This document shows, in pieces, positions 13,661-28,971 of a stretch of DNA of 32,000 nucleotides. Source of the stretch: an uncultured bacterium (GTDB lineage Bacteria > Cyanobacteriota > Cyanobacteriia > Cyanobacteriales > Nostocaceae); contig CAXTNZ010000019.1 of NCBI GenBank assembly GCA_964245695.1, positions 7,181 through 39,180 of the forward strand, written 5' to 3'. Made by a program: the position numbers and the translations under genes. Below the pieces are notes generated by a model. The model did no database searches, was not told the DNA's origin, and saw only the letters and a program-made list of their open reading frames with translations. Position 1 is the first letter of the stretch, and each line of letters begins with the position of its first letter.

Positions 13661-14245
13661 GTGCTGACAGTGGGCTTATTTGATGATTTGAGTCGGTTTT
13701 TAGAAAACCGTTTAGAAGAATTTTTGCGAAATAATCCGCATTTAGAGTTAGAAGCGCTGTTAGAACAACTGCGTGAGCAAGAGGAAGACACTTTAAAACT
13801 GATTGCAGATTTACAAGTACAAGAGAAGCGATCGCAGGACGATATTCTCTCCACCGCTCAAGAAATCCAAAAATGGCATATCCGCGTTCAAAAAGCACAA
13901 GCCTCTGGTAGACAGGATTTGGTAGCAGCAGCACAAGAACGAGAAGCAGCTTTGTTGCGCGAAGGAAATCAACGCTGGGGACAAATGCAAGGGCTAAAAG
14001 AACGCATTACCCAATCTAAAGAACTAGTGCGGAAAATACAAGCACGTCGCCAAGAGGTGCAAACCAAAGCAGCTGAAGCACAGACAGTCCGTGCAAAAAC
14101 TCAAGCTCAACAGCGCTTAGAAACTAATGGTTGGTCAAATCAAGCTAGCAGTTATTCTCATGGATTTGACGACTTAGAAGAGAAATTTCTTCGCTGGGAA
14201 ACTCAGGATGAGTTGGAACAGATGAAGCGTAATATGGGAAAATAG
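13661..14245 (+). CDS. Conserved cyanobacterial coiled-coil protein (PspA/IM30-like architecture; resembles the TIGR04376 family from memory)
   Basis: 194-aa ORF. The true start is more likely GTG at 13670, giving MGLFDDLSRFLENRLEEFL. The body is a long heptad-rich, Glu/Gln/Arg-rich helix. Confidence 0.65.
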   Translation: MLTVGLFDDLSRFLENRLEEFLRNNPHLELEALLEQLREQEEDTLKLIADLQVQEKRSQDDILSTAQEIQKWHIRVQKAQASGRQDLVAAAQEREAALLREGNQRWGQMQGLKERITQSKELVRKIQARRQEVQTKAAEAQTVRAKTQAQQRLETNGWSNQASSYSHGFDDLEEKFLRWETQDELEQMKRNMGK

Positions 14246-14875: not shown

Positions 14876-15451
14876 ATGGAACAAACTATATTTTTAGAAG
14901 TGTTAAATAGCCTGCAACGATTATTTGTAGGCTACATTCCCGCCGCTGTTTTAGGTATTGTAATTGGCAGTTTCATTGGCATTAATAACTTGATTTATCG
15001 GGTCTTCAAGTGGATAATTCAGATACCGCATAGTGTCGCGCCCATAGCTTTGCTCCCACTTGCTCTTATAGGGTTTAAAGAACCGGAAGCCGCAGCAATT
15101 GTCATAGTTTTCTTTAGTGCCATTTGGTCAATTATTGTGAATACAGCTACAGGTATGCGCCTATGTCGTCAACAAGGCAATAACTTTCGAGTAGCAATAA
15201 ATCATATATTTGATGCTCTGAGAATTGGCGGTTGGGTAGCTTGGTTTACGGTAATTGCTACAGAAATGCTAACTAGCAATAAAGGACTTGGCTTTGTCAT
15301 TTGGAATGGTTATAAATCTGGCAATTACAATTACACTATTGAGGGGATAATCTATATTAGTATTATCGGCTTTCTCATAGACCAACTGCTTGATATCACT
15401 GGGCATATTCTTTCGCAGCTTGTCTCGGAGGGGCAGAAATCCGACCTTTAA
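14876..15451 (+). CDS. ABC transporter permease of the nitrate/sulfonate/bicarbonate (NrtB/CmpB/SsuC-like) type; short, orphan, possibly a pseudogene
   Basis: 191-aa ORF with the family pattern SLQRLFVGY...AAVLGIVIGSFIG...APIALLPLALIGF...IWSIIVNTATGMR...LRIGGWVAWFTVIATEML. It is N-terminally short, and the EAA coupling loop between NTATGMR and LRIG is visibly shortened. There is no ATPase or binding-protein gene nearby. Confidence 0.65.
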   Translation: MEQTIFLEVLNSLQRLFVGYIPAAVLGIVIGSFIGINNLIYRVFKWIIQIPHSVAPIALLPLALIGFKEPEAAAIVIVFFSAIWSIIVNTATGMRLCRQQGNNFRVAINHIFDALRIGGWVAWFTVIATEMLTSNKGLGFVIWNGYKSGNYNYTIEGIIYISIIGFLIDQLLDITGHILSQLVSEGQKSDL

Positions 15452-15489
15452 AATTTATTAATTATCATGCTTACTCGCAATTACGTTTT

Positions 15490-16611
15490 TTAGGCTGAAC
15501 TCGACTGACCCTCTAGCAAATCACTACCTGAAGAGCGATATTTTTGCCACAGTTCTAAGGTGATAATACAGGCAATCAACCACACTAAACCTACAGCATA
15601 GCCAGCTATCACATCAGTGGGCCAGTGTACGCCTAAATAAAGCCGACTAAAGCCGATCGCACCAATTAAGATAACGGTCAAGGCAAAAATTTGTTCTTGC
15701 GATTGAGGAAATTGCTTTGCCAGAATATAGCCTATAAAGCCGTAAATCGCCATTGACACCATTGCGTGACCGCTAGGAAAGCTGTGTAGACCGACATTAA
15801 TAATACGGTCCCACAGTGCTGGACGTGCCCTACCAAACCGCACTTTCAACAAATAATTTAAGCCGATAGCACCGACTGCGGCTATGCCCAAGGTAGTTGC
15901 TTCAAGGCGACGTTTATAATACAGCGACCCAATTCCCAATCCCAAACAAATCAACAGCAAAGATACTGGATCGCCAAGAAAAGTGATGCCAAGCATGATG
16001 CGATCGCTTATTGGCGTGTGCAGCTTTTGAATTGCTAGCAAAATGCGCGTGTCAAGATTATATGCGTGCAACACAAGCGTGCCGCATACAAGGGTGCAAA
16101 CAGCCCCCGATAACAGAAGAAGCGAATCTGTCGAGGATACATGCCAAGGTGAAATTTTTGGCTTATTCAATTTTCTTTTGTTTATAAGTAAATTTTTTCC
16201 TTCTTCTGGCGCTGTGCTGATATAAGTCCTTACAGGTAGTTTTCTGACCTCTTTTATGTAATCTAAGACAATAAATTCAACGAGCAAGGCGATCGCGTTT
16301 GGGTTCTTATCTGGATGGAAAATAACCAGAACATTTCCTGTCAAATGGTTAGCACGAACTTGCGCGATTCCTTCCTTTTGTGACAATCTCAATTCAAGGT
16401 ATCTTTTGAGAGCTTCGTCTTGATGAAGTCCACTTACCTTATATCTGGCTCTTCCTTTGACAGCGGTATGTATTGCCCAAACCAAAGAATTCTCATTGGG
16501 GAGTTTATGGAGAGGAGGAGTGCCCATTTTTCTACGAGTGCTGATTGAAGTCAAACTGTATCTAAATTTAACAGGTGGGACGGGAAACGATGTGAATGGT
16601 AATGTCGGCAC
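15490..16611 (-). CDS. Fusion protein: N-terminal HMA2-like (Cys-free ferredoxin-fold) domain plus C-terminal PAP2 (type 2 phosphatidic acid phosphatase/undecaprenyl-diphosphatase-like) membrane phosphatase
   Basis: 373-aa ORF. The PAP2 motifs are KVRFGRARP (KxxxxxxRP), FPSGH (PSGH) and SRLYLGVHWPTDV (SRxxxxxHxxxD). The N-terminal block VKGRARYKVSGLHQDEALKRYLELRLSQKEGIAQVRANHLTGNVLVIF resembles the HMA2-type domain found at the N-terminus of some cyanobacterial P-type ATPases. Confidence 0.8.
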   Translation of the reverse strand: MPTLPFTSFPVPPVKFRYSLTSISTRRKMGTPPLHKLPNENSLVWAIHTAVKGRARYKVSGLHQDEALKRYLELRLSQKEGIAQVRANHLTGNVLVIFHPDKNPNAIALLVEFIVLDYIKEVRKLPVRTYISTAPEEGKNLLINKRKLNKPKISPWHVSSTDSLLLLSGAVCTLVCGTLVLHAYNLDTRILLAIQKLHTPISDRIMLGITFLGDPVSLLLICLGLGIGSLYYKRRLEATTLGIAAVGAIGLNYLLKVRFGRARPALWDRIINVGLHSFPSGHAMVSMAIYGFIGYILAKQFPQSQEQIFALTVILIGAIGFSRLYLGVHWPTDVIAGYAVGLVWLIACIITLELWQKYRSSGSDLLEGQSSSA

Positions 16612-16614
16612 AGG

Positions 16615-17331
16615 CTACACAGCGTCGGCTTCTCGTAGAGTAGCCGTGCTAGACGCGTCTTGACCGACAGCTTGCAGCCTTTGGAGTTGCTTGCCCACCT
16701 CTTTGGACGCAGTCCGCGATCGCCATCGCTTGTTGGGCAAGATGAACATGGTAGCAGATTTTAGCTTCTTGATTATCGTTTCTGTGGTTGAGAGTAAGCG
16801 CTCCCAAATGTCTTTCCTGGGCTGTCCATACATAATGGCGTTACGCGCTTTGTTGATGTTACGTGTACTGTCAATGAGGTTGATTACAGCATCAAAGATG
16901 GCTCCCAGAATTGTTTTTGCCTTTGCTTGTGGCAAAACTATATTTGGAGAGGTTTGAATAAGATTGACCAAATGCGATCGCATTTGTGCATCTGAAATTA
17001 CGCCTAGTTGATAATTGATGACAATCGATGCAGCTGTAGAGTTAACACGGACATTCGTAGCTTTAGGGTCGGATTCTATCACCCGCTTGAGTTTATTGGC
17101 ATACTCAGAATCTGTAGCTAGCCGAGGAATACGAAAACGAATCCGTCCAGGAATTGCATGGACAACGCTATAGGATATGCTTTCGGGTGGCGCTGTTTTA
17201 TTAGCTACGCTATACGTTGTCTTTTTAGGTTGTCTATCCTGATTGGGAATAGCACTTTTGTCATAATTAGACCGTTTTCTAGAAGTCATAATGTCATGTT
17301 TCCGTTTCAAAAAAGGAAAAAAGAGAGCCAA
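16615..17331 (-). CDS. HMA2-like domain-containing protein (no CxxC), function unknown
   Basis: 238-aa ORF; an alternative start is Met15 at 17289. The domain is VVHAIPGRIRFRIPRLATDSEYANKLKRVIESDPKATNVRVNSTAASIVINY. The stop lies 3 nt upstream of the start of the PAP2 fusion gene, so the two probably form an operon. Confidence 0.7.
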   Translation of the reverse strand: MALFFPFLKRKHDIMTSRKRSNYDKSAIPNQDRQPKKTTYSVANKTAPPESISYSVVHAIPGRIRFRIPRLATDSEYANKLKRVIESDPKATNVRVNSTAASIVINYQLGVISDAQMRSHLVNLIQTSPNIVLPQAKAKTILGAIFDAVINLIDSTRNINKARNAIMYGQPRKDIWERLLSTTETIIKKLKSATMFILPNKRWRSRTASKEVGKQLQRLQAVGQDASSTATLREADAV

Positions 17332-17436
17332 GATTTATAAATTTTTTATTGATATGGCTTTAACTCGTATATTGCACCGTGCCAAACCTTTTTTAACTTA
17401 TATAAAGTTTTTAAGGTTGGCGGTGAGATTGCGTTT

Positions 17437-17715
17437 ATGTACCAAAACCTGATTGATACTGCTTTACAGCTACTTTACAGACAGGCTCTTAGTGAAAAAA
17501 TCTATCCCAGTAGTGAGAAAAAACTTTGGAAAGGAAAAAGAATTCCAGGGCGGGCTGATCCACTTTCGGTATACTATATCAAGCAAAGTACCAGACATTA
17601 CATTAAGACAGTACTCAGCCTGATTACTCAGAAATTCCCCAAATCAATTCATGCGGTTATTATGAAGGATTTTCTACTGAAGGTATCAGCCTTTGTCGAG
17701 TGCCAAATAATTTAG
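17437..17715 (+). CDS. Hypothetical small Lys-rich protein (weak call)
   Basis: 92-aa ATG ORF in an otherwise empty AT-rich gap upstream of the helicase gene. No recognisable motif. Confidence 0.2.
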   Translation: MYQNLIDTALQLLYRQALSEKIYPSSEKKLWKGKRIPGRADPLSVYYIKQSTRHYIKTVLSLITQKFPKSIHAVIMKDFLLKVSAFVECQII

Positions 17716-17773
17716 CAGTCTACATTTGCGTTATTAATAATTAAAGTGTGAGGAATCAGGGAGAAAGCTTTAA

Positions 17774-19375
17774 ATGGCTCGCACCGCGACGTTAACTTTT
17801 GATCGTGGTACATTAATTTTGCATCCACCAGCACGCGGCAAAGCCTGGATGGATTACGCTACGTGGGATGATAGAATTGAAAAATTCCGCATTCCGGCGA
17901 TTCAATATCGACCTTTGGTGGAAGCGCTACAAGCGGAAGAGACTAACTTTATCGATGAAGCGAAGGGATTTTATCCGGTAGAGTTAGTTTCCAGTATGGA
18001 GATGGAACCCTATCCCCACCAGAGTGAGGCGTTAGCAGCTTGGAAGCTGGCGGGAAGGCAAGGGGTAGTGGTGCTTCCCACAGCGGCGGGAAAGACTTAT
18101 CTGGCGCAAATGGCGATGCAAGCGACGCCGCGCACGACGCTGATTGTGGTGCCGACTTTGGATTTAATGCACCAGTGGTATGCACACCTAAAAGCGGCGT
18201 TTCCTGATGCTGAGGTGGGTTTGCTGGGGGGTGGTTCGCGGGATAAAACACCGATTTTGGTTGCGACTTACGACAGTGCAGCAATTCATGCAGAAAGCTT
18301 GGGGAATAAGTATGCTTTGATAGTTTTTGATGAATGTCATCATTTGCCAACCGATTTTAATCGCGTTATTGCCGAATATGCGATCGCACCCTATCGACTC
18401 GGACTATCTGCAACACCCGAACGCACTGATGGTAAACACGCTGATTTAAATATCCTTATTGGTAGAGAAGTATATCGCAAACGCGCTGAAGATTTGGCGG
18501 GGAAGGCGCTAGCAGAACATGAAGTTGTGCAAATTAAGGTTAAGCTGTCGCAACTTGAGCGGGAAAGATACAATCAGTTAATTCAAACTCGCAATGATTT
18601 TTTGCGAGAATCTCGGATTTCTTTGGGGAGTCTTCAAGGTTGGCAACATTTTGTGCAAATGAGTGCGCGATCGCCTGCTGGACGTCGAGCTATGTTAGCA
18701 CACCGTCAAGCGAAAGAAATCGCTTTGGGTACAGATGGAAAGTTGCGAATTCTTACCAATTTACTTGCAGAACATTATCCGGAAAGAATTTTGATTTTTA
18801 CTGCTGATAATGCCACTGTTTACCGGATTTCTCAAGACTTGCTAATTCCGGCAATTACTCATCAAACTCCTGTGAAAGAACGCCATGAAATATTAACCAA
18901 ATTTCGCGAGGGGGAGTATAAAAGTTTGGTTGCTTCTCATGTGTTGAATGAAGGTGTTGATGTGCCGGCTGCAAGTATTGCGATTATTTTATCGGGTACT
19001 GGTTCGGCGAGGGAATATATTCAACGTTTGGGAAGGGTTTTAAGGAAGGGTAATATCGCAAATAAGCAGGCGATTTTATATGAGGTGGTGGCGGAGGATA
19101 CGAGTGAGGAGAATACTTCGGCAAGGAGGAGGGGGGAGAGGAGTAACGAACCGCCAAGTCGCCTTCGCGCAGCGTCTCCGACAGGAGAAGAACGCCAAGA
19201 GAGGAAGGATAAGAGAGGGAATTTGCATGTTGTTTATGGAAGTGGTCAGAAAAGTGATTATAAGGCTGCTGAACAGTTAGAAATTAAGTATTCGGTTGAG
19301 AAGAAAGCTAAAACACCCAATAAAAATAATGTAGATTCAAAAGACTCATCAGAAACCGACAACAGACGCGATTAA
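17774..19375 (+). CDS. XPB/Ssl2-like superfamily 2 DNA helicase (DEAD/DEAH box helicase, ERCC3-type) with a low-complexity basic C-terminal tail
   Basis: 533-aa ORF. The N-terminal TLTFDRGTLIL module resembles the XPB damage-recognition domain. Motifs are Walker A LPTAAGKT, motif II DECHH, motif III with a RED-like element GLSATPERTDG, and motif VI QRLGRVLR. The last ~85 aa are Arg/Glu/Lys-rich low complexity. Confidence 0.9.
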   Translation: MARTATLTFDRGTLILHPPARGKAWMDYATWDDRIEKFRIPAIQYRPLVEALQAEETNFIDEAKGFYPVELVSSMEMEPYPHQSEALAAWKLAGRQGVVVLPTAAGKTYLAQMAMQATPRTTLIVVPTLDLMHQWYAHLKAAFPDAEVGLLGGGSRDKTPILVATYDSAAIHAESLGNKYALIVFDECHHLPTDFNRVIAEYAIAPYRLGLSATPERTDGKHADLNILIGREVYRKRAEDLAGKALAEHEVVQIKVKLSQLERERYNQLIQTRNDFLRESRISLGSLQGWQHFVQMSARSPAGRRAMLAHRQAKEIALGTDGKLRILTNLLAEHYPERILIFTADNATVYRISQDLLIPAITHQTPVKERHEILTKFREGEYKSLVASHVLNEGVDVPAASIAIILSGTGSAREYIQRLGRVLRKGNIANKQAILYEVVAEDTSEENTSARRRGERSNEPPSRLRAASPTGEERQERKDKRGNLHVVYGSGQKSDYKAAEQLEIKYSVEKKAKTPNKNNVDSKDSSETDNRRD

Positions 19376-19426
19376 TTCCGTCTCTACTTCTAACTTTGTA
19401 CAGACGCGATTAATTCCGTCTCTACT
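19362..19426. repeat. Two direct copies (38-bp period) of a 27-bp hairpin-type dispersed repeat ACAGACGCGATTAATTCCGTCTCTACT
   Basis: Copy 1 is 19362-19388 and copy 2 is 19400-19426, identical as read. The helicase stop codon TAA (19373-19375) lies inside copy 1. Confidence 0.85.
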
Positions 19427-19451
19427 ATCAACTAACAACCAATCAATCGTA

Positions 19452-20666
19452 ATGTTACCAACTGATTTACTAATTCATCGTCAGAATGGGGAGGAGATAA
19501 TCCCGAAGAGACTAAAGCTTGATAAGAAGACTTTGGAGTTAGCTGTTGAGTTAATTGATTGTTTTCATGAAGCGGTAGGTAAGACGCAGGGTGTTCTTGA
19601 GCGTCAGTTGTTGGAGTTGGAGGGTGATACTACTGATTATAAGGTGAAGCGGGGATTAGCTTATATTTTAAAAAGCAGTTTTTGCACGTTTGAAGTGGTG
19701 AGTCCTTTGGAACCTCAAATGTTACGAGAAAGGGTGTTTGCTTTATCTGCAAAATCTGTCCCAAGTCCACAATCAACGCAAGCGACACTTAGCAAAATTG
19801 CTGATGAATTAAGTCAGGAATTTGAGCGGGAAGTTTTACCGCAACAAGTTCATGATGGGTTATATGCTGATTTGTCGGAAAATAAGATTTTGATTGCTTT
19901 TGATGCACCTACACCTGAAGATTTGTTGCATCGATACAATTTATCTCAAGTGCAGGGTGTGTTTTATCGAGCGAGTCAACTTATTTTAAATGCTCATCGT
20001 AATGTTCCGGGGGAATATAAGCTTTTGTTTCGCTATTTAAAGCTGTTTCAATTGATGGCTTATATTGAAGGTGATGCTGACCACGGATTTACAATTACGA
20101 TTGATGGTCCGACGAGTTTGTTTAATCCGAGTACGCGATATGGTTTGGCGATCGCTAAACTTATTCCCGCTTTACTTCACGTCACAAGATGGAGTCTTTC
20201 CTCTACCCTACAAACTCGCGACTTTTACACGAATACTTGGAAAACTGGACGTTTCACTCTCAATTCTGAATGCGGTCTAGTGTCTCATTATCCACCTGGC
20301 AAACCTTACGATAGTATGTTGGAAGCGTCGTTTGCTGATAAGTGGGATTCGTTAAAAAGTGATTGGGTGTTAGAGCGAGAAGTTGATTTAGTTCCGATTC
20401 CTGGTAGTGTGATGATTCCCGATTTTCGTTTGGTACATCCTGATGGACGCACGTTTTTATTAGAAATTGTGGGTTATTGGCGTCCAGAATATTTACAAAA
20501 GAAGTTTTCCCAGGTGCGTCGTGCGGAACGTGATGACTTGATTTTGGCAATTTCTGAAAGATTAAATTTGGAAAAAGCGGGTGTGAAATTAAATGATGTT
20601 CCCGCTAGAATTATTTGGTTTAAAGATAAGTTATTGCCGAAGGCAGTATTAGCAGCATTGGAGTAA
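19452..20666 (+). CDS. DUF790 family protein (Bax1-like endonuclease, partner of XPB helicases)
   Basis: 404-aa ORF directly downstream of the XPB-like helicase. The C-terminal nuclease-like block is IPDFRLVHPDGRTFLLEIVGYWRPEYLQKKF, characteristic of DUF790/Bax1. Confidence 0.8.
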   Translation: MLPTDLLIHRQNGEEIIPKRLKLDKKTLELAVELIDCFHEAVGKTQGVLERQLLELEGDTTDYKVKRGLAYILKSSFCTFEVVSPLEPQMLRERVFALSAKSVPSPQSTQATLSKIADELSQEFEREVLPQQVHDGLYADLSENKILIAFDAPTPEDLLHRYNLSQVQGVFYRASQLILNAHRNVPGEYKLLFRYLKLFQLMAYIEGDADHGFTITIDGPTSLFNPSTRYGLAIAKLIPALLHVTRWSLSSTLQTRDFYTNTWKTGRFTLNSECGLVSHYPPGKPYDSMLEASFADKWDSLKSDWVLEREVDLVPIPGSVMIPDFRLVHPDGRTFLLEIVGYWRPEYLQKKFSQVRRAERDDLILAISERLNLEKAGVKLNDVPARIIWFKDKLLPKAVLAALE

Positions 20667-20670
20667 TTAT

Positions 20671-20907
20671 ATGAAAACTATCGAAACAATTGCCACGGTT
20701 ACAGCAGATGGGAAAATTACGTTGCAGTTACCGGCTGATATTCCCGAAGGTGAACATCAAGTGGTGGTGATAATTGATGAAAAGCCTTTGGTAGAGAAAG
20801 CACAGACGAAGGAAAAGCGATCGCCCCTGAAATTTTCCGCTTATCCTGTAGGATTAGTTTCGGAAGGCGTTACTTTCCGTAGAGAAGACTTGTATGCAGA
20901 CGAGTGA
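20671..20907 (+). CDS. Type II antitoxin (VapB-like, small N-terminal beta-domain type)
   Basis: 78-aa ORF with ATVTADGKITLQLPADIPEGEHQVVVI, typical of cyanobacterial antitoxins. It starts 4 nt after the DUF790 stop and overlaps the PIN gene by 14 nt. Confidence 0.7.
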   Translation: MKTIETIATVTADGKITLQLPADIPEGEHQVVVIIDEKPLVEKAQTKEKRSPLKFSAYPVGLVSEGVTFRREDLYADE

Positions 20908-21340
20908 TACAGCTGTTTTCATCGACACAAATATTTTGGTTTATGCTAATTTAACTTTGTCGCCGTTTCATACACAAGCTACAGAGCGACTGCAAGCTAT
21001 GGAAGAGCAAGGTACTGAGTTGTGGATTCGCCAAATACTTAAGGAATATTTGGCAGCCATGACAAGACGCAACGACTTAACCGGAGAAATTCCTATTGCT
21101 TCCCTAGCGGCAGACGTGCGATATTTTGCTAACCGCTTTCGATTAGCTGAAGATACCCCAGAAGTTACGGAAAGACTTTTAAATTTGATGCAGGAAATTG
21201 CTATTGGTGGCAAGCAAGTGCATGATGCGAATATTATCGCCACAATGTTAGTTTACCATATTCCGCAGTTATTAACTCACAATACAGGAGATTTTTTGAG
21301 ATTTTCTCAGATGATTGCTGTGTTGCCTTTACAAGATTAG
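20894..21340 (+). CDS. vapC: PIN-domain toxin, VapC family
   Basis: 148-aa ORF. PIN acidic residues occur in VFIDTNILVYA, in ELWIRQILKEYL and in GKQVHDANIIATM. Overlapping start/stop with the upstream antitoxin. Confidence 0.85.
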   Translation: MQTSDTAVFIDTNILVYANLTLSPFHTQATERLQAMEEQGTELWIRQILKEYLAAMTRRNDLTGEIPIASLAADVRYFANRFRLAEDTPEVTERLLNLMQEIAIGGKQVHDANIIATMLVYHIPQLLTHNTGDFLRFSQMIAVLPLQD

Positions 21341-21370
21341 AACTTTTATATAAATGCGCCCTCAGAATTT

Positions 21371-21615
21371 GCATTACCCGCCATAGGTTAAAACCTATGG
21401 CTAATAGCCAAAGTCCTCTTAAGAGGACTAAGTACAATATTGCACAAAGAAAGTAACAAATTAAATTCCCAAAAACTCTGCGTCCCTCCGCGATTACTCT
21501 GTGTTCCTCTGCGTTTAAAAAAGCGCTCGTTTTTACGCCTAGTTAAGGTATTAATTTTAGCCCACTTCAGTGGGGTTAAGCTATTAGCCTGAGATTTAAA
21601 TCTCAGGCGTTAAGA
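21371..21615. repeat. Cluster of dispersed hairpin repeats (MITE/SDR-like): two hairpin-CTAATAGCC-hairpin modules flanking a CTCTGCGT-type repeat
   Basis: Module 1 hairpins are CCATAGGTTAAAACCTATGG (21381-21400) and AGTCCTCTTAAGAGGACT (21412-21429). Module 2 hairpins are CCCACTTCAGTGGG (21561-21574) and GCCTGAGATTTAAATCTCAGGC (21587-21608). Each pair is bridged by CTAATAGCC/CTATTAGCC. Confidence 0.55.
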
Positions 21616-22035
21616 AATGCATCGTCAAACATGAGTGTTAATCCAAGCCCAAATAAATACTGAGAATATCAATTTAGTAAGTAATATATTACTCAAATAT
21701 CGCTCAGTACCCATTCCCGGACGTAGTAGCTGCAAGTTGTATGCGATGGCTCCGCCCAACCTAGGCATCGCCTAATTCATACCTCAATTGGTGCAACGTT
21801 CATCGCCCACATAATTTATTAAAAAAATACTTGCTTCATGCATTTATCTGTGCAATTATGTCTTCAGTTATAAAATACGGCTTGTCTACCAAGTTACAGT
21901 AGTTGCTTGGCAGATATCTAGTATTAATCCATTTTTAGCCAGTAGGTCAGAAGTATTGTCCAACAAGTCTGAAGTGTCATCACTCAGGCTGCGATCGGCA
22001 TGACCAAAGTAATTGCACAATTGGGAGAGAAATCA

Positions 22036-23409
22036 ATGAGTAAATACAAACTACCAGCAATTGGTCGTCGCCAGTTTGTACAGGCTACACTTGCCAGTAC
22101 AATCTTGACATTAGGAGGTTCGAGCGTTTTTTCGGCTATAGCTGCCAGACGAAAGCGTCCGAATATACTGTTCATTTTGACGGATGACTTGGGCTGGGGC
22201 GACATTGGTATTTATGGAAAAACCTATGAAACGCCAAATTTAGACCAGTTGGCAAGGGAAGGTACGCGCTTCACCAATGCCTATGCAGCGCAAACTGTTT
22301 GCACGCCAACACGGATCGGCTTTTTTACAGGTCGTTATCCAGCGCGATTGCCAGTTGGTCTTCAAGAACCTCTAGTTGAAAGTGACAATGTAGGATTACC
22401 GCCGGAACAGCCAACAATCGCTTCCCTTTTAAAAGCTAAAGGTTATGAGACAGCATTAGTTGGTAAATGGCACGCTGGCTTTCTTCCAGATTACGGTCCA
22501 CTCAAGAGTGGCTTTGATGAGTTCTTTGGAAACTATAGTGGAGGGATCGACTACTTTACTCACAAAGGTCTAGATGGAAAACTTGACTTCTATGAAGGTG
22601 AAGTGCCTCTAGATAAACCGGGCTACGCTACAGACTTGTATACTGAACGTGCTGTTGAATTCCTCAAAAGACACCGCAATCAACCATTTTACCTAAGCCT
22701 TCATTACAATGCACCTCATTGGCCCTGGGAAGGACCAGAAGATGAAGAGTTAAGTCGAACTTTCTACAATTCCAACGCCTATACTGCTGGAGGGTCAAAA
22801 GAAACTTACGCTGCAATGTTAAAAAGTTTGGACGACGGAGTTGGTAAAGTCTTACAAGCTTTAAAAGATTCTGGGCAGGCTGATAACACTATAGTCATTT
22901 TTGCCAGTGATAACGGCGGTGAGAGATTCTCTGATATTGGACCTTTTCAAGGGATAAAAGGCAGTTTGTATGAAGGTGGTATACGAGTCCCCACTTTTAT
23001 CCGCTGGCCAGGAGTGATTCAACCCAACCAGGTAAATAACCAAGTTACTATCACTCAGGACTTGACAGCAACAATTCTGGCAGCAACAGGTACTTCACCC
23101 GATCCCAACTATCCACTGGATGGTCGAAATTTGCTTCCAGTCCTTCTGGGCAAAAAACCTGTTTCCCCGCGAACGCTGTTCTGGCGCTATAAATCTAATG
23201 TTGGTGGACGTGCTCCAGGTCAACTCCAAGCAGCAGTCCGAAGCGGAGATTGGAAGTACTTGCGGCAAGGAGAGAAAGAATATCTATTTAATCTTGCCAC
23301 TGACGAAGGCGAACAAACTGACCTCAAAGATAATAATCCCAAAGTATTCCAGCGGCTGCGCGATCGCTTTGAGGAATGGAATGAACAAGTACTGCCTTAC
23401 CCAGTTTAA
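22036..23409 (+). CDS. Arylsulfatase (formylglycine-dependent sulfatase family) with Tat signal peptide
   Basis: The ORF is open from 22000, but ATG 22036 has a GGAGAG RBS and gives MSKYKLPAIGRRQFVQATLAS (twin-arginine signal). It has the N-terminal metal motif ILFILTDDLGWGD and the formylglycine motif CTPTR in VCTPTRIGFFTGR. Confidence 0.9.
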   Translation: MSKYKLPAIGRRQFVQATLASTILTLGGSSVFSAIAARRKRPNILFILTDDLGWGDIGIYGKTYETPNLDQLAREGTRFTNAYAAQTVCTPTRIGFFTGRYPARLPVGLQEPLVESDNVGLPPEQPTIASLLKAKGYETALVGKWHAGFLPDYGPLKSGFDEFFGNYSGGIDYFTHKGLDGKLDFYEGEVPLDKPGYATDLYTERAVEFLKRHRNQPFYLSLHYNAPHWPWEGPEDEELSRTFYNSNAYTAGGSKETYAAMLKSLDDGVGKVLQALKDSGQADNTIVIFASDNGGERFSDIGPFQGIKGSLYEGGIRVPTFIRWPGVIQPNQVNNQVTITQDLTATILAATGTSPDPNYPLDGRNLLPVLLGKKPVSPRTLFWRYKSNVGGRAPGQLQAAVRSGDWKYLRQGEKEYLFNLATDEGEQTDLKDNNPKVFQRLRDRFEEWNEQVLPYPV

Positions 23410-23422
23410 GGAAAAGTCATTT

Positions 23423-24415
23423 ATGCAGGAACGTACAGTACGCCAAGTTTCATCTGGTAAATCTGACAAGCAAATCGCTGCCAAGCGTCCTGGTAAAGTC
23501 CCTGATAAAGACATGAACTGGATACCGGGCGGCGCTTTTATGATGGGGTCTGACCACCACTACCCAGAGGAAAGTCCAGCCCATCTTGTCCGTGTAGATG
23601 GCTTCTGGATGGATCGCTACGCCGTCACCAACAAGCAATTCCAACGTTTTGTGAAAGCAACTGGCTACGTAACAGTAGCGGAGCGTCCACCGAACGCAGA
23701 AGATTATCCAGGAGCCATACCGGAACTGCTAGTACCAGGCTCGGCTGTATTTCAGCAGCCCAACCATCCAGTAAATCCACAAACTTGTAGCTGGTGGATC
23801 TATGTGCCTGGTGCTAACTGGCGACATCCAGCAGGACCTGGAAGTTCTATCAAGGGGCGAGAAAATTATCCTGTAGTGCATATTGCTTATGAAGATGCTC
23901 TTGCTTATGCAGCTTGGGCAGGCAAAGTGCTGCCAACAGAGGCACAGTGGGAATTTGCTGCTCGCGGTGGGCTGGAAGGTGCTGTCTACACTTGGGGCAA
24001 TGAATTTGCCCCCAAAGGCAAGCGGATGGCTAACACTTGGGAAGGTGAGTTCCCTTGGCAAAACCTCAAGCCGCACTCTGCTGGAGCAGAATCTGTCGGC
24101 TTGTATCCTCCAAATGCCTATGGTTTGTACGATATCATAGGCAACGTTTGGGAGTGGACAACTGACTGGTATCGAGATCAGCACCGAGAAAATAAGACGA
24201 AATCTTGCTGTATTCCAGTCAACCCCAGAGGCGGATCACAAGAAGAGAGCTTTGACCCAAATATACCGTCCCGAATACCTAGAAAGGTACTCAAGGGTGG
24301 TTCCTTTCTCTGTGCGCCTAACTATTGCCAGCGTTATCGACCAGCCGCACGTCATCCAGAAACAGTAGATACCTCAACGTGTCATATCGGATTTCGTTGT
24401 GTAGTCAATGTGTAG
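23423..24415 (+). CDS. Formylglycine-generating enzyme (FGE/SUMF1 family)
   Basis: The track ORF starts at 23120 but overlaps the sulfatase. The in-frame ATG at 23423 (MQERTVRQ) is 13 nt after the sulfatase stop. FGE blocks are MNWIPGGAFMMGSD, PAHLVRVDGFWMDRYAVTN, NYPVVHIAYEDALAYAAWAGKVLPTEAQWEFAARGG, GNVWEWTTDWY and LKGGSFLCAPNYCQRYRPAAR. Confidence 0.9.
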   Translation: MQERTVRQVSSGKSDKQIAAKRPGKVPDKDMNWIPGGAFMMGSDHHYPEESPAHLVRVDGFWMDRYAVTNKQFQRFVKATGYVTVAERPPNAEDYPGAIPELLVPGSAVFQQPNHPVNPQTCSWWIYVPGANWRHPAGPGSSIKGRENYPVVHIAYEDALAYAAWAGKVLPTEAQWEFAARGGLEGAVYTWGNEFAPKGKRMANTWEGEFPWQNLKPHSAGAESVGLYPPNAYGLYDIIGNVWEWTTDWYRDQHRENKTKSCCIPVNPRGGSQEESFDPNIPSRIPRKVLKGGSFLCAPNYCQRYRPAARHPETVDTSTCHIGFRCVVNV

Positions 24416-24507: not shown

Positions 24508-24885
24508 ATGGAACCTGCTACACTAACAGCAGCTGCGATCGCTACTTTACTCATTACCAAAGCTTTTGAGAAAACTGGCGAAATCATCGGCGAAAAAGCT
24601 TGGAATGAAGGCGAGAAGTTGGTATTGCTGCTCAGGCGTAAAGAACCATCAATTGCAAATGCTGTAGAATTAGCTCAAACACGACCTCTAGATTATGGTC
24701 AAGCTCATTTAATTGGACAGCAAGTTGAGCAAGCAGCAACCAAAGATCCGGAAATTCGGGAAGCTGTTGCAGATGTGGCGAAGTCAGCCGAACCTAAATT
24801 AACAACATCTATGATTGAAAATTGGCAAGGTATCAACAATAAAGGCAGAATTGATAATATTTCTGGCAATACCTTCCATTTTTGA
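24508..24885 (+). CDS. Small alpha-helical protein; most likely the detached N-terminal (effector/adaptor-like) domain of the downstream NB-ARC/TPR protein
   Basis: 125-aa ATG ORF. It ends at TGA 24883-24885 in exactly the same reading frame as the NB-ARC ORF. The 60 nt between them contain no further stop. Confidence 0.55.
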   Translation: MEPATLTAAAIATLLITKAFEKTGEIIGEKAWNEGEKLVLLLRRKEPSIANAVELAQTRPLDYGQAHLIGQQVEQAATKDPEIREAVADVAKSAEPKLTTSMIENWQGINNKGRIDNISGNTFHF

Positions 24886-24945
24886 CTACAGTCGTCCGAA
24901 CGGGAACGGACAAAGTTAACTCCCACCACCGAAATACCAGATAAT

Positions 24946-26904
24946 TTGCCTTGGAGTGGGGCGACAAAGTTCGTCGGGCGGGAAACAGAACTCGCACGCC
25001 TCCACCAATTATTGCAGGAAAATGATTCTGTTGCCATTGCTGCTATTACTGGTATGGGTGGTGTCGGAAAAACTGAACTGGCGTTGCGATATGCAATGAC
25101 TCAGCGGGAATTTTACTCTGGCGGCGTTTGTTGGTGTGGAGTGAAAAGCGGTGATGTCGGTTTCCAGGTAGTACAATTTGCTCGCACTCACCTTGATTTA
25201 AACCCGCCCACTGATTTTAATTTAATCGACCAGGTAAAATACTGTTGGCGGCACTGGCGTGGTGGTAATGTTTTGTTAGTGCTGGATAATGTAACTATAT
25301 ATAAAGAAATTCAGCTCTATTTACCGCCGCCATCCTCCCGGTTTAAGGTGTTGCTGACTTCCAGAAAGCACTTTGGGCAGATTGAGAAGTTATCATTAGA
25401 TGTGTTGCAACCGCCAGCGGCGTTGGAATTGTTGCGAAATCTCGTTGGGGAAGAACGGGTTAATGTAGAGACGCGAAATTTCGCGTCTCTACCCGAAAGA
25501 TTGGGATATTTACCTTTAGGAATAGAGTTGGTAGGGCGCTATCTCGCCAGAAAACAAGATTTATCCCTGGCAGAAATGTTACAAAGGTTAGAGAAAAAGA
25601 AACTCAAAGAGCGTTCTTTGTCTCAACCAGAAGAAAATATGACAGCACAGCAGGGTGTGGAAGCAGCTTTTGAGTTAAGTTGGGAAGAATTAACCGACAA
25701 CGATAAGCAACTCGCCTGTTTGCTGAGTTTATTTGCTGCTGCACCGATACCTTGGCAGTTGGTAGAATCTTGCTTACCTGATGTGGATACAGAAGAGTTA
25801 GAAGAAAGTCGAGATGAGAAGCTGCTGAATTTGCATTTGCTACAGCGTAAGGCAAAGGGAATTTATCAACTGCATCCACTGCTGCGAGAATTCTTTCAGG
25901 CGAAGCTAGAAGCACCACCTTTTCAGGAAAATTCGGGGGATCTTAAACAAGCTTTTGCTACAGTAATGGTAGCAGTTGCCAAGGAAATTCCTCAAACCGC
26001 CAACCGTGAGAAAATCACGGATGTCGCCCCTAAACCTCATTTAGCAGAAGTAGCCAAGAATCTAAGTCAATACGTTAGCGATGAAGATTTAATTTGGGCT
26101 TTCCTCGGTAACGCTGCATTCTACTATAGTGAGGGATTGTATCACCTGGCAGAACCTTGGTTTAAGCAATGTCTAGAAGTTATTAAAAAGCGCTTAGGAG
26201 AGGAACATCCCTCTGTTGCAGTTAGCCTTAACAATCTGGCGTTACTCTACCGTTCCCAAGAAAGGTACAGCGAAGCCGAACCCCTGTTTCAACAAGCTTT
26301 GGAACTTACGCTACGCCTCCACAAAGAGGAACATCTCGATATTGCCACTAGCTTGCACAACCTGGCTAGTCTCTACCACTCCCAAGGACGGTACAGCGAA
26401 GCCGAAACACTCTTCAAACAAGCTTTGGAACTTACGCGACGCCTGCTGGGAGAGGAACATTCCCATGTCGCCATTTGCCTTGATAACCTGGCGCTAGTTT
26501 ACCGTTCCCAAGGACGTTATACCGAAGCCGAACCGCTGAACCTGCAAGCTTTGGAATTATGGCAACGCCTTTTAGGAGAGGAACATCTCCATGTCGCTGT
26601 TAGCCTCAACAACCTGGCGCTAGTCTACCATTCCCAAGGACGGTACAGCGAAGCTGAAACACTGTTCAAACAAGCTTTAGAACTATGGCAACGCCTTGTA
26701 GGAGAGGAACATCCGCATGTCGCCACTAGCCTCAATAATCTGGCGGTACTCTACCGTTTCCAAAAACGTTACACCGAAGCGGAACTCTTGTATGTGAAAG
26801 CTTTGGAGATTCGTGAGCAACGTTTAGGTATGAATCATCCCCACACTATCACTACTCGTGAAAATTTGGCATTTCTTCGCGCTGAGATAACTTCAGAGCA
26901 GTAA
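24946..26904 (+). CDS. NLR-like STAND NTPase: NB-ARC domain plus C-terminal TPR_10/TPR_12 (kinesin-light-chain-type) repeats
   Basis: 652-aa ORF as given, with a TTG start inside the motif NLPWSG. It has FVGRETELARLHQLL, P-loop GMGGVGKTELA, Walker B VLLVLDNV and LGYLPLGIELVG (GLPL motif). About six 42-aa repeats follow, of the form LNNLALLYRSQGRYSEAEPLFQQALEL..RLLGEEHP.VA.S. No ATG or GTG start is available before the P-loop. Confidence 0.85.
   Translation: MPWSGATKFVGRETELARLHQLLQENDSVAIAAITGMGGVGKTELALRYAMTQREFYSGGVCWCGVKSGDVGFQVVQFARTHLDLNPPTDFNLIDQVKYCWRHWRGGNVLLVLDNVTIYKEIQLYLPPPSSRFKVLLTSRKHFGQIEKLSLDVLQPPAALELLRNLVGEERVNVETRNFASLPERLGYLPLGIELVGRYLARKQDLSLAEMLQRLEKKKLKERSLSQPEENMTAQQGVEAAFELSWEELTDNDKQLACLLSLFAAAPIPWQLVESCLPDVDTEELEESRDEKLLNLHLLQRKAKGIYQLHPLLREFFQAKLEAPPFQENSGDLKQAFATVMVAVAKEIPQTANREKITDVAPKPHLAEVAKNLSQYVSDEDLIWAFLGNAAFYYSEGLYHLAEPWFKQCLEVIKKRLGEEHPSVAVSLNNLALLYRSQERYSEAEPLFQQALELTLRLHKEEHLDIATSLHNLASLYHSQGRYSEAETLFKQALELTRRLLGEEHSHVAICLDNLALVYRSQGRYTEAEPLNLQALELWQRLLGEEHLHVAVSLNNLALVYHSQGRYSEAETLFKQALELWQRLVGEEHPHVATSLNNLAVLYRFQKRYTEAELLYVKALEIREQRLGMNHPHTITTRENLAFLRAEITSEQ
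25465..25492. repeat. Perfect 28-bp palindrome GTAGAGACGCGAAATTTCGCGTCTCTAC embedded in-frame in the NB-ARC coding sequence
   Basis: Read directly: GTAGAGACGCGAAA is the reverse complement of TTTCGCGTCTCTAC. It encodes VETRNFASLP just upstream of the GLPL motif. It belongs to the same repeat family as 19362-19426 and 31619-31650. Confidence 0.9.
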
Positions 26905-26950
26905 AATTCAAGTTCTCAGCCTCAACGATGAAGTTTTAAACTCGGCTGTT

Positions 26951-27167
26951 CTCGTTCTTAGTGAGAATGTTCCTGTTCTTAGTGAGAACGTTCTCGTTTC
27001 AACCCAGAACTTTCAGCCTTTGAGGCTCATCGTTCATGCTCAGAGGCTCATCGTTCACCTTCTGAGGCTCATCGTTCATGCTCAGAGGCTCATCGTTCAC
27101 CTTCTGAGGCTCATCGTTCACCTTCTGAGGCTCATCGTTCAGCCTCTGAGGCTCAACTTCCGAGTTC
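26951..27167. repeat. Two adjacent tandem-repeat arrays with 21-bp period (three units of a GTTCTTAGTGAGAA type, then about seven units of TGAGGCTCATCGTTCACCTTC)
   Basis: The first array has units at 26951, 26972 and 26993. After a 7-nt spacer, the second array has units at 27021, 27042, 27063, 27084, 27105 and 27126, plus a degenerate unit at 27147. Variation is confined to positions 16-21 of the unit (ATGCTC / ACCTTC / AGCCTC). Confidence 0.9.
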
Positions 27168-27263
27168 CAAGGTTGAATGACGGTGTTAAAAGGCGTAAAC
27201 GTAGCCCACCCAGGACAAAATTAGCTACTATCAATCATATAATTATCTTTTACAAACACAGAA

Positions 27264-27473
27264 ATGTTAATTACATACACGGCAAAATATACAAAAACTA
27301 ATAGCGGATATATGGGACAACTGATTGAATGGCAAGAAGTCATCACAGAGGGAGAAACCATAGAAGAATGTAGGGTGATGTTGCAAGACGCAACCAAAGA
27401 AATGATTCTCGCTTATCGTCAACAAAATAAAGAAATTCCCACAGGTGATTCTTTGCTCAACAAATTCCTATAG
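27264..27473 (+). CDS. HicB-family (UPF0150-like) antitoxin, orphan
   Basis: 69-aa ORF with YTAKYTKTNSGYMGQLIEWQEVITEGETIEECRVMLQDATKEMILAY, typical of short HicB antitoxins. No HicA ORF is adjacent. Confidence 0.65.
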   Translation: MLITYTAKYTKTNSGYMGQLIEWQEVITEGETIEECRVMLQDATKEMILAYRQQNKEIPTGDSLLNKFL

Positions 27474-27503: not shown

Positions 27504-27866
27504 TCATATCGGTAATCGCCTCACTCGGAAAGTTTCATTACTCACAGAAATAATTGCCCCTACCTCTAAATCTTCTTGACATTCACGCAAAACTTGCGTC
27601 AACCGTTGATTAATTGCATCGTAATTTTCATTCCCCAACCTAAATAAAATCACACTGGGTAAACTATCGCCACTCACTGCTAAAAGCTGGGCAAAATCTA
27701 AATCTATAGTTAATAAAATTCTCCCTTCTGCACGGGCTTTAATTAAAATCTCATCATCTGGTAGTCTTTGCAAACCTTCATCGCGCAAATGCACCACATC
27801 ATAACCACCACTACGCAACCAAAACACAGTGCGTAATGAAATTCCCATATCTGCCAAAAACTTCAT
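27504..27866 (-). CDS. DUF5615 family PIN-like (Mut7-C-like) nuclease domain protein, putative toxin
   Basis: 120-aa ORF with MKFLADMGISLRTVFWLRSGGYDVVHLRDEGLQRLPDDEILIKARAEGRILLTIDLDF, characteristic of DUF5615. It lies downstream of a DUF433 gene with a 9-nt gap. Confidence 0.8.
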   Translation of the reverse strand: MKFLADMGISLRTVFWLRSGGYDVVHLRDEGLQRLPDDEILIKARAEGRILLTIDLDFAQLLAVSGDSLPSVILFRLGNENYDAINQRLTQVLRECQEDLEVGAIISVSNETFRVRRLPI

Positions 27867-27875
27867 GATTATTTT

Positions 27876-28106
27876 TTAAGCACTTTTGAAGGGATAAACC
27901 CGCTCTTGAGTCAACCACGCCGCGTAAAGTAGAGATTGACGAATATCCTCTGGTTCTAAATCAGGATATTCTTCTAAAATCTCCGCTACAGGTTTGCCAT
28001 TAGCTACCAAATTTACGACTAAAGAAACCGGAATTCGCATCCCGCGAATGCAAGCTTGTCCACCCATTACGCTAGGGTCAAATGTAACTCTCTCTAGACC
28101 TAACAT
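27876..28106 (-). CDS. DUF433 domain protein, putative antitoxin partner of DUF5615
   Basis: 76-aa ORF with DPSVMGGQACIRGMRIPVSLVVNLVANG...ILEEYPDLEPEDIRQSLLYAA, the DUF433 signature. Confidence 0.85.
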   Translation of the reverse strand: MLGLERVTFDPSVMGGQACIRGMRIPVSLVVNLVANGKPVAEILEEYPDLEPEDIRQSLLYAAWLTQERVYPFKSA

Positions 28107-28275: not shown

Positions 28276-28971
28276 TCACCATCCCATAATTCTCCTCTTC
28301 TCCCAATATTGAGCAACCCTGACTTCCCACTGTCGCCAATACTCATTCATCGCTTCTCGTTCAAACCAAAATACCTCAGCTTCTCTTTCCGGTATCGCTA
28401 CAACCAACAAAGCATGAGCAATTTCAATTCCATAATCTTGATAATACTCATTAACAGCTCCCATATACGCTGTTAATTGCAGTGGATGTTCATACAAACG
28501 CTCAATTGAACCTTTCGGTTTATCTGCGGTTTTCCACTCGCAAACGCAGGGAACACCTTGATAACTAGCCACACAATCAACTTTGCCAGAATAGCTCAAA
28601 TTGTAGTGAAAAACTGAGCCTTCCACGAGTCTAACTGTGTCAACTTCTTCTAAAACAGGTTGAATACTTTGCCAGTAAGGAAGACTCGCTTCTGAACAAA
28701 CCGGATTTTCACCGAGTAAATAACGTTCTATTTGTTTGTGGGTTTGAGTACCGCGACGACTAGCGGTTGATGTAATTCGCGTTGCTTCTTCTGTACCGAC
28801 ACGCGCTTTCCAATTTGACAGTCTGTCACGCTGTTCTTGGGGTTTGGTAGCATTCAGTATTGTGGTGACACTAGGCAAGCGATCGCCTTTAGCATCTACA
28901 TAATATTGTTTACCATTTTCCCGCACCGATTTGGCATTAATACGGGGTAGCAATAAGGTATCAAATGGCAT
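28276..28971 (-). CDS. PD-(D/E)XK superfamily nuclease (RecB/Cas4-like exonuclease fold, without Cys cluster)
   Basis: 231-aa ORF with the catalytic pattern GKVD (D) ... CEWKT (E-x-K) followed by QLTAYMGA (QxxxY-like). Monocistronic. Confidence 0.65.
   Translation of the reverse strand: MPFDTLLLPRINAKSVRENGKQYYVDAKGDRLPSVTTILNATKPQEQRDRLSNWKARVGTEEATRITSTASRRGTQTHKQIERYLLGENPVCSEASLPYWQSIQPVLEEVDTVRLVEGSVFHYNLSYSGKVDCVASYQGVPCVCEWKTADKPKGSIERLYEHPLQLTAYMGAVNEYYQDYGIEIAHALLVVAIPEREAEVFWFEREAMNEYWRQWEVRVAQYWEKRRIMGW

Follow-up and report, generated by a model that had tools for sequence, protein, structure and literature searches.

We identified a four-gene locus in a 32,000-nucleotide (nt) stretch of Nostocaceae (Cyanobacteriota) DNA (assembly GCA_964245695.1, contig CAXTNZ010000019.1, positions 7,181-39,180, forward strand; hereafter the window) that encodes an XPB-type superfamily 2 (SF2) helicase, a Bax1 (DUF790) nuclease and a VapBC toxin-antitoxin (TA) module. 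We consider it likely that the locus is an archaeal-type XPB-Bax1 operon, located on the chromosome and inherited vertically, with a probable auxiliary role in a DNA-damage or DNA-structure route rather than in immunity, and that VapBC is an accessory at its 3' end. An initial annotation made from the DNA letters had described the same four open reading frames (ORFs). Their coordinates and spacings were borne out, with a 76-nt gap between XPB and Bax1, a 4-nt gap between Bax1 and vapB, and a 14-nt overlap of vapB and vapC, as were the identities given to XPB, DUF790/Bax1 and VapC (Table 1). The GC content and skew of the four genes, checked for a signal of horizontal transfer, were unremarkable compared to the flanks.

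The helicase and nuclease

The helicase carries a complete XPB_DRD domain near its N-terminus (PF18458; residues 7-63, spanning the full 57-position model; 90.5 bits against a cutoff of 26, E 6e-26) and also matches ResIII, Helicase_C and ERCC3_RAD25_C in Pfam. Residues 4-454, thumb region included, align with residues 23-465 of XPB from Archaeoglobus fulgidus (AfXPB; PDB 6p66_A) with E 2.5e-101 and a mean accuracy of 0.96. SF2 motifs I, II, III and VI are present (PTAAGKT, DECHH, SAT and QRLGRVLR), and every helicase motif quoted in the initial annotation was found in the translation. The protein is predicted to have DNA-dependent ATPase and 3'-5' helicase or translocase activity. The RED motif of XPB reads R-T-D (GLSATPERTDG), with the Arg and Asp kept and the central Glu replaced by Thr; this variant was found in 77 of 78 Nostocales homologues, and Deinococcus proteins carry R-S-D. 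Beyond the aligned region lies a basic, low-complexity C-terminal tail of about 80 amino acids (aa; approximately residues 455-533) that evolves fast, with a ratio of nonsynonymous to synonymous substitution rates (dN/dS) of 0.34 in the tail and 0.048 in the core. Against the NCBIfam model for the DNA repair helicase XPB (NF045503), the protein scores 191 bits, where the equivalog cutoff is 610; this model appears to describe a different bacterial XPB lineage.

The DUF790 protein matches PF05626 over its full length (residues 1-403, model positions 1-387; 533 bits against a cutoff of 28.8, E 4e-160) and Bax1 of A. fulgidus (AfBax1; PDB 6p66_B) with E 1e-32. Within its nuclease domain, D324 and E338 align exactly with AfBax1 D305 and E318, and E291 aligns one position off AfBax1 E275, inside the EEE run of the archaeal protein. 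Of 130 diverse DUF790 homologues, 126 retain D324, 120 retain E338 and 90 retain E291. The residues that contact XPB are also present, as Y138, D140, Y162 and N163 (AfBax1 Y131, D133, Y155 and N156), and the last three are kept in 128, 123 and 121 of the same homologues. In AfBax1, D133 and Y155/N156 lie at the XPB interface and an N-terminal nuclease site, and D133, Y155/N156, D305 and E318 have been mutated in archaeal studies (PMC7293015). All 15 residues that are at least 93% conserved in the 130 proteins occur in the window protein (R92, D140, Y162, N163, G219, P220, Y230, G231, P239, W305, P323, D324, E338, G341 and W343), and the median dN/dS of Bax1 is 0.052.

The NCBIfam Bax1 equivalog models NF053694 and NF053695, which were built on archaeal lineages, gave 167 and 143 bits against cutoffs of 500. 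Scores this far below the NCBIfam cutoffs for both XPB and Bax1 place the window proteins in a distinct bacterial branch of both families. An AlphaFold2 (AF2) model of Bax1 built with 17 near-identical homologues had a mean predicted local distance difference test score (pLDDT) of 45 and was confident only over the nuclease domain (residues 288-404). When searched with Foldseek, its top five matches were chains of S. tokodaii Bax1 (StBax1; E 3e-10), but the template modelling score was 0.27 for a model confident over that domain only. By analogy with the archaeal proteins, we infer that XPB and Bax1 form a complex in cyanobacteria.

Distribution and evolution of the pair

A close Bax1 relative was found in 239 species, a bare count without a denominator rather than a share of Nostocales. 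The Nostocales counts given here refer to the best 80 of these species, with one genome scanned per species; all 80 are Nostocales. XPB lies directly 5' of Bax1 in 79 of them, and the remaining locus is cut by a contig end. The nearest relatives of the window are in Tolypothrix, Hassallia and Spirirestis, with 98% Bax1 identity, and across Tolypothrix, Nostoc, Calothrix, Komarekiella, Aulosira and Stigonema identity ranges from 87 to 98% for Bax1 and from 82 to 93% for XPB. The upstream genes are common to most Nostoc, Calothrix and Komarekiella loci. The pair, at a dN/dS of about 0.05, can be compared with vapBC at 0.16-0.27 (vapC 0.16-0.26), a nearby PD-(D/E)XK gene at 0.13 and an NB-ARC-TPR gene at 0.27. 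Together, the adjacency, the sequence identity of 82-98%, the slow evolution and the shared upstream neighbours largely give the picture of a syntenic core gene, which the initial annotation had itself named as refuting its proposal of an anti-phage or anti-plasmid system. This evolutionary pattern fits a chromosomal DNA-maintenance function.

Whether the helicase always accompanies DUF790, a question that the initial annotation had raised, has a divided answer: adjacency holds in nearly all of the Nostocales loci but is uncommon among more distant relatives. A metagenome scan returned at least 578 relatives, and 80 loci were kept, from which the identity figures are taken. Bax1 on cyanobacterial contigs formed an unbroken range of identity from 98% down to 66% among these 80 loci. 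XPB was adjacent in 28 of the 30 loci with at least 77% Bax1 identity, but in only 4 of the 30 at 66-76%. At 66-76% identity, Bax1 lies among core genes (aroC, psbA, rplS and pheS) on contigs that we regard as cyanobacterial because they are rich in HIP1. In non-heterocystous cyanobacteria (loci L129-L161 and L179 of our survey), Bax1 is usually solo among core genes, with no XPB within 8 kb; a Leptolyngbya copy also stands alone, 3 kb from polA. Thus Bax1 is mostly unlinked from XPB in other cyanobacteria, and solo Bax1 keeps all catalytic and XPB-contact residues. The named representatives of the 50%-identity clusters were Deinococcus reticulitermitis and one Leptolyngbya metagenome-assembled genome (MAG). 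In Brasilonema (L167 and L168, 1484-3085), XPB is parted from Bax1 by an inserted GMC-family oxidoreductase gene, so the pair can be separated without losing either gene.

The solo copies bear on a different reading, in which Bax1 is the core enzyme and XPB one possible partner in a DNA transaction unrelated to lesions, such as one at stalled forks, R-loops, transcription bubbles or recombination intermediates in polyploid filaments. The scarcity of adjacent XPB at 66-76% identity and the retention of catalytic and "interface" residues by solo Bax1 would agree with this, as would the facts that archaeal XPB mutants are barely sensitive to ultraviolet light (UV) and that archaeal XPB-Bax1 prefers bubble and fork substrates in vitro (PMC7293015, PMC7672443). 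However, XPB may be encoded elsewhere in genomes with a solo Bax1, the present analysis lends the proposed substrates no direct support, and a photoproduct lyase neighbour and UV induction in Deinococcus (see below) point to damage repair. We therefore regard a purely non-lesion role as doubtful, though with a real chance of being correct, and continue to favor a damage- or structure-processing operon.

The VapBC module

VapC matches the PIN-domain family PF01850 with 29 bits, above the cutoff of 23.6, and is a PIN toxin by this measure; it matches TIGR00028 with E 6e-13 and 49.3 bits, below the cutoff of 73.6. The acidic residues D11, E51, D121 and D141 can be read from the translation, and database homologues carry the name VapC family toxin. 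The only match of VapB was a sub-threshold one to the N-terminus of RelN-type antitoxins (22 bits against a cutoff of 70), with nothing significant in Pfam, and an AF2 single-sequence model reached a pLDDT of 54, too low for a fold search. The VapB-like antitoxin of the initial annotation is thus a candidate, assigned mainly from context: its small size, its position and its overlap with the PIN gene, with comparative support from the 32 loci in which vapC is always accompanied by vapB. Toxicity of VapC and its neutralisation by VapB are predicted. In keeping with type II VapBC modules, a small ORF overlaps the PIN gene by 14 nt, the acidic residues are intact and the toxin never occurs without the antitoxin. 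Unlike such modules, the window antitoxin belongs to no curated family above threshold, and the module sits immediately behind a conserved gene's stop codon, with no intergenic promoter region. The final codons of Bax1 contain a Shine-Dalgarno-like GGAG, 8 nt ahead of the vapB start codon (ATG), which makes read-through from Bax1 and translational coupling of vapB plausible. VapBC would then probably be transcribed and translated as an extension of the Bax1 transcript.

The initial annotation had noted that the TA module abuts the pair. Indeed, the four genes occur together in many genomes, and a vapB homologue was found 3' of Bax1 in 40 of the 80 Nostocales species (gap of 4-18 nt in 33 of those), but the arrangement is facultative and absent from the other half. 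VapC is also present in 32 loci and never without vapB, and vapB stands alone in 6 loci. Two paralogous lineages can be distinguished: lineage A has a 78-aa VapB, a 149-aa VapC and a 14-nt overlap, and lineage B has proteins of 80 and 154 aa with a 32-nt overlap. The window has the lineage A layout, with a VapC of 148 aa. The lineages have the N-terminal half of VapB and the C-terminal third of VapC in common and diverge elsewhere, so that, as among type II modules, a shared antitoxin N-terminus is combined with divergent interaction regions. They occur singly or in tandem, in either order. Both are spread over the XPB-Bax1 tree (five of its eight clades), which suggests an old association followed by differential loss.

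VapC homologues of at least 61% identity lie directly 3' of DUF790 in Brasilonema, Anabaena, Nodularia and Stigonema, each time with different outer flanks, and in Nodularia vapB overlaps the Bax1 stop codon. Such homologues were behind Bax1 in 4 of 8 sampled cases. In one MAG, a VapC homologue is 4.7 kb from an XPB gene; those without a nearby DUF790 gene were in Gloeotrichia, Hapalosiphon and Scytonema. No close VapC relative was found on plasmids, where the best match had at most 33% identity. The module was found in 0 of 56 metagenome loci with 66-85% Bax1 identity and room downstream, in none of the five Deinococcus loci inspected, and in none of the more distant cyanobacterial and archaeal pairs. 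Together, these data indicate that the linkage of vapBC to the pair is real, old and dispensable in both directions. With a gap of 4-18 nt, rearrangement can hardly separate vapB from Bax1, so their co-inheritance needs no functional coupling. We propose that vapBC settled directly behind Bax1 in an early heterocystous cyanobacterium and was then co-inherited, duplicated into two specificity lineages and repeatedly lost, and that the helicase-nuclease pair would not need it.

The same linkage could be seen as selfish: the pair, with or without vapBC, would be an addictive cassette without benefit to the host, kept by TA addiction and tight linkage. The decay pattern around the abutting TA module, with orphan vapB and vapC never alone, fits addiction dynamics, and the flanks of the block differ among Anabaena/Nodularia, Nostoc, Brasilonema and Stigonema. 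A distant relative lies beside three tyrosine recombinase genes on an IMG/VR contig, and in 2005 Feder and Bujnicki (PMC1189080) allowed for a "selfish character". Yet 40 of the 80 species have lost vapBC and still keep the pair at a dN/dS of about 0.05, so addiction cannot explain its retention; no transposase, integrase or terminal repeats were found beside the pair in the window, and it is absent from cyanobacterial-type plasmids and from phages. We consider this explanation very improbable compared to that of a vertically inherited operon with an accessory module.

Three further arrangements of the module were observed. In Hapalosiphon and Scytonema PCC 10023, the VapBC lineage directly precedes an NB-ARC-TPR gene, with no Bax1. 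In Gloeotrichia echinulata (L171 and L172, 4769-9126), VapBC (73% VapC identity) precedes an adjoining 770-aa UvrD/PcrA-like helicase, followed by a second small ORF and PIN gene, and thus shows another helicase in a similar layout. In the Brasilonema loci L167 and L168, XisH and XisI genes lie 3' of vapBC.

Relation to mobile elements and defence systems

Searches for mobile copies gave little. No plasmid in PLSDB carried a close relative of the pair: all 42 matches had less than 60% identity and came from Deinococcus (46-51%) and haloarchaea (33-35%), none from cyanobacterial-type plasmids. Phage records gave no match to the pair, and a single match was found among 2.9 million IMG/VR viral contigs. 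This contig (L086, 9-2421 and 5541-8783) encodes Bax1 and XPB of 31% and 40% identity, the latter with R-S-D; its high GC content and three adjacent tyrosine recombinase genes make it look like a bacterial mobile element and not a phage.

In the comparison with PADLOC-DB v2, which the initial annotation had suggested, the helicase matched only the helicase core of PbeA (E 7e-54, residues 73-447); it also matched TIGR04095 (E 1e-32). The database has no model for DUF790, and neither VapB nor VapC was matched, so the locus does not correspond to a known defence system. An XPB/ResIII-like SF2 core is common to the window helicase and to helicase-nuclease systems in PADLOC (PbeA of Pbe, Dnd-linked restriction helicases and type IV restriction enzymes). 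In contrast to the window helicase, the PbeA models are about 250 aa longer N-terminally and the DRD falls outside the match; and unlike typical defence genes, the window pair evolves slowly and is syntenic. Among the window neighbours, PADLOC gave only a generic TPR match; in four related loci it gave DndC.

If the four genes nevertheless formed an anti-phage or anti-plasmid system, as the initial annotation had hypothesised, XPB-Bax1 would cut structures in invading DNA and VapBC would serve as an abortive-infection or back-up arm. The recurrence of all four genes in many genera with differing outer flanks would agree with this, as would the close spacing of vapB (4-18 nt after Bax1 in 33 of 40 loci, overlapping its stop codon in Nodularia), the downstream TA modules, NB-ARC-TPR gene and (in four related species) DndC, the resemblance of the helicase core to PbeA and Dnd-associated restriction proteins, and the megaplasmid location of the Deinococcus and haloarchaeal relatives. 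However, defence genes would be expected to be patchy, fast-evolving and mobile, and the pair departs from this pattern: dN/dS is about 0.05 with 82-98% identity across Nostocales families, the upstream neighbours are common to most Nostoc, Calothrix and Komarekiella loci, and cyanobacterial-type plasmids and phage records yielded no close relative. Moreover, Bax1 has no PADLOC model, half of the species and all more distant pairs lack vapBC, solo Bax1 lies among housekeeping genes in other cyanobacteria, and the upstream flank in the window is itself housekeeping. A defence system is therefore improbable in our view.

We give a similarly slim chance to the stronger proposal that XPB-Bax1-VapB-VapC acts as one functional unit in heterocystous cyanobacteria, with the TA module tied to the pair in both transcription and translation, as a regulator or as the abortive-infection arm of a new immune system, or to its milder variant, in which Bax1 is a cyanobacteria-wide core nuclease independent of XPB. 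The zone next to the pair is variable and rich in TA modules, but the pair is not. The contents of this downstream flank (TA modules, an NLR-like gene, DndC) make an association with defence-type genes possible.

Comparison with known systems and possible function

XPB-Bax1 is the prokaryotic counterpart of the TFIIH-XPB/XPG step in eukaryotic excision repair. The window pair has much in common with the archaeal pairs of A. fulgidus and S. tokodaii (PDB 6P66, 6P4F, 6P4O and 6P4W): a two-gene operon in which the helicase precedes the nuclease, a helicase composed of a DRD, two RecA-like domains and a thumb, a nuclease composed of an N-terminal region and a PD-(D/E)XK domain, the nuclease and XPB-contact residues, and full-length matches for both proteins. 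It differs from them in that its host is a bacterium that also has UvrABC, in R-T-D and the extra basic, fast-evolving tail of XPB, in its scores far below the Bax1 equivalog cutoffs, and in the vapBC appended in about half of Nostocales.

Outside cyanobacteria, the nearest pairs are those of Deinococcus (D. gobiensis DGo_PA0135/0136; helicase orthologue DR_A0131 in D. radiodurans), with 46-52% Bax1 identity. These have the same gene order, overlapping ORFs and a modified RED motif (R-S-D), but lie on megaplasmids or secondary replicons, lack vapBC, and have an XPB of 464-474 aa without the basic tail. The D. gobiensis pair directly follows a spore-photoproduct-lyase gene, and its DUF790 gene is among the UV-induced genes (PMC3314630 Table S4); the D. 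peraridilitoris pair adjoins topA, near NucS. By analogy, these relatives lend modest support to a role in damage repair. Mycobacterial XPB (M. tuberculosis Rv0861c; NF045503) belongs to the same SF2 XPB family and has the same core motifs, but has no known Bax1 partner (PMC3353954). The window helicase is distant from it (191 against 610 bits) and much closer to archaeal XPB.

Based on the archaeal complex, XPB would bind a junction of duplex and single-stranded DNA or a bubble through its DRD, thumb and R-T-D motif, and would translocate with ATP to open the DNA; Bax1 docked on XPB would, by homology, nick the displaced strand (PMC7293015, PMC7672443). In Nostocales, the pair would probably serve as an auxiliary route for processing DNA damage or DNA structures beside UvrABC, for example after UV or desiccation.

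Several observations weigh against this reading. The RED motif has Thr in place of its central Glu, and both proteins score far below the NCBIfam equivalog cutoffs, so their function may have diverged from that of the equivalogs. Two features are compatible with defence: the Deinococcus and haloarchaeal homologues are on megaplasmids, and the sequence just 3' of Bax1 varies in content and includes TA modules, an NB-ARC-TPR gene and (in four species) DndC. The D. gobiensis helicase, unlike its DUF790 neighbour, was not UV-induced (-0.85; PMC3314630 Table S4). Even for the archaeal pair, a role in repair is unproven: deletions of XPB or XPD in Thermococcus and Sulfolobus caused only slight sensitivity to UV, mitomycin C (MMC) or methyl methanesulfonate (MMS) (PMC7690668, PMC7776575). 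Finally, our literature search found no experiment on any cyanobacterial XPB or Bax1, and the figure of 239 species has no denominator.

The association of a helicase with DUF790 in cyanobacteria was already noted in 2005 (Feder and Bujnicki, PMC1189080), and what we add is a quantitative cyanobacterial picture, the R-T-D and R-S-D variants of the RED motif, the solo state of Bax1 outside Nostocales and the recurrent attachment of vapBC, a link with one VapBC lineage that is old and dispensable. Although real, the finding is fairly ordinary and does not constitute a new kind of system. It also corrects the literature: a 2012 paper placed XPB in "few, if any" cyanobacteria (PMC3353954), which our survey contradicts for Nostocales. 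The in vivo role of XPB-Bax1 is puzzling even in archaea, where mutants are barely UV-sensitive. Nostocales are well placed to help with this: the pair is widespread in the order and under strong constraint, and genetic tools are available for some of its members; since these bacteria also have UvrABC, the separate contribution of the pair is accessible by genetics.

Upstream and intergenic sequence

In an alignment of the 260 nt 5' of XPB from 15 diverse Nostocales loci, the only conserved block was a motif of about 20 nt (consensus CATTTTGCGTTATTAGTAAT), about 30-40 nt 5' of the XPB start codon (Table 1). It occurs order-wide and is retained even where the upstream gene differs. The motif probably includes the -10 region of the XPB-Bax1 operon or a site for a regulator. 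A promoter-like match at 17712-17741 overlaps it, although such matches were not above chance in the region. No LexA-box-like sequence was recognised in the motif by eye, with no formal motif search made. In some Nostoc genomes, runs of a CCCAATG heptamer are inserted between the motif and the XPB start codon.

The spacer between XPB and Bax1 is explained by a local duplication: two 27-nt direct copies, the first of which contains the XPB stop codon, create most of its 76 nt. Related loci mostly lack a spacer: in 59 of 77, Bax1 begins inside the XPB ORF, with an overlap of 71 or 98 nt, and most Nostoc genomes have the 71-nt one.

Promoter and terminator scans of 17200-22100 gave the same counts as shuffled sequence, and thus no evidence for or against an internal vapB promoter. 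Inverted repeats that could serve as an operator were not found near the Bax1 3' end or the vapB start, and Rfam gave no match within 17000-22100. The first terminator-like, non-coding site 3' of the four genes is a hairpin about 170 nt behind vapC, although the number of such sites in the region was not above that in shuffled sequence.

Table 1. Features of the XPB-Bax1 locus and its surroundings (positions in the window)
Feature	Position	Strand	Remarks
Conserved upstream motif	17723-17745	+	CATTTGCGTTATTAATAATTAAA in the window
XPB-type SF2 helicase	17774-19375	+	533 aa; identified by Pfam domains and AfXPB alignment
27-nt direct copies (ACAGACGCGATTAATTCCGTCTCTACT)	19362-19388, 19400-19426	+	read from sequence
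Bax1 (DUF790) nuclease	19452-20666	+	404 aa; N-terminal XPB-binding region, C-terminal PD-(D/E)XK domain (E291, D324, E338)
VapB-like antitoxin candidate	20671-20907	+	78 aa; lineage A; by size, position and PIN-gene overlap
VapC PIN-domain toxin	20894-21340	+	148 aa; PF01850, TIGR00028
Terminator-like hairpin	21511-21536	+	T-rich tail; consensus scan
NB-ARC-TPR (NLR-like) gene	24946-26904		3.6 kb downstream
Two 21-nt tandem repeat arrays	26947-27155		2.5 and 6.9 copies, just 3' of the NB-ARC-TPR gene
HicB-like ORF	27264-27473	+	TA-like
DUF433/DUF5615 pair	27876-28106, 27504-27866	-	TA-like
PD-(D/E)XK (PDDEXK_1) gene	28276-28971	-	231 aa

Neighbouring genes

The initial annotation had placed the locus next to repeats, an NLR-like gene and other TA modules. 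All of these are present in the window, but they are farther away than this implied, and the upstream side is housekeeping in character, with genes for MnmG, sensor (histidine) kinases, a TetR regulator, MscS and PAP2/HMA_2 proteins. Downstream, the order is a sulfatase and its maturase, a small gene with the NB-ARC-TPR gene, the 21-nt repeats, the HicB-like and DUF433/DUF5615 pairs, and the PD-(D/E)XK gene. The last of these is convergent and directly follows Bax1 or vapBC in 42 of the 80 Nostocales species (78-81% identity, dN/dS 0.13), and a functional link with the pair is possible. In the window, insertions have pushed it 7 kb from the pair. The space between Bax1 and this gene is variably filled, by vapBC, a RelE-type TA module, an endonuclease/phosphatase gene with a cardiolipin synthase gene, or nothing; in four related species, DndC is downstream.

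In many species, the small gene (125 aa) and the NB-ARC-TPR gene (together 24508-26904) are conserved as a pair on the downstream side of the locus. The repeat arrays behind them generate a spurious repetitive ORF at 27020-27301, and several Nostoc loci encode a DUF5615 protein of 90-93% identity.

Two segments set the window apart from related loci. At 14876-17331, an ABC permease fragment, a PAP2-HMA_2 gene and an HMA_2 gene separate XPB from a coiled-coil gene (13661-14245); in the closest relatives (L001 and L004-L007), the coiled-coil gene ends about 250-360 nt before XPB, so this segment looks like a strain-specific insertion. At 22000-24415, sulfatase and formylglycine-generating-enzyme (FGE) genes lie between vapC and the small/NB-ARC-TPR gene pair, a position at which none of the surveyed related loci has them. 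As listed, the FGE ORF shares 290 nt with the sulfatase ORF, and its true start is therefore probably later.

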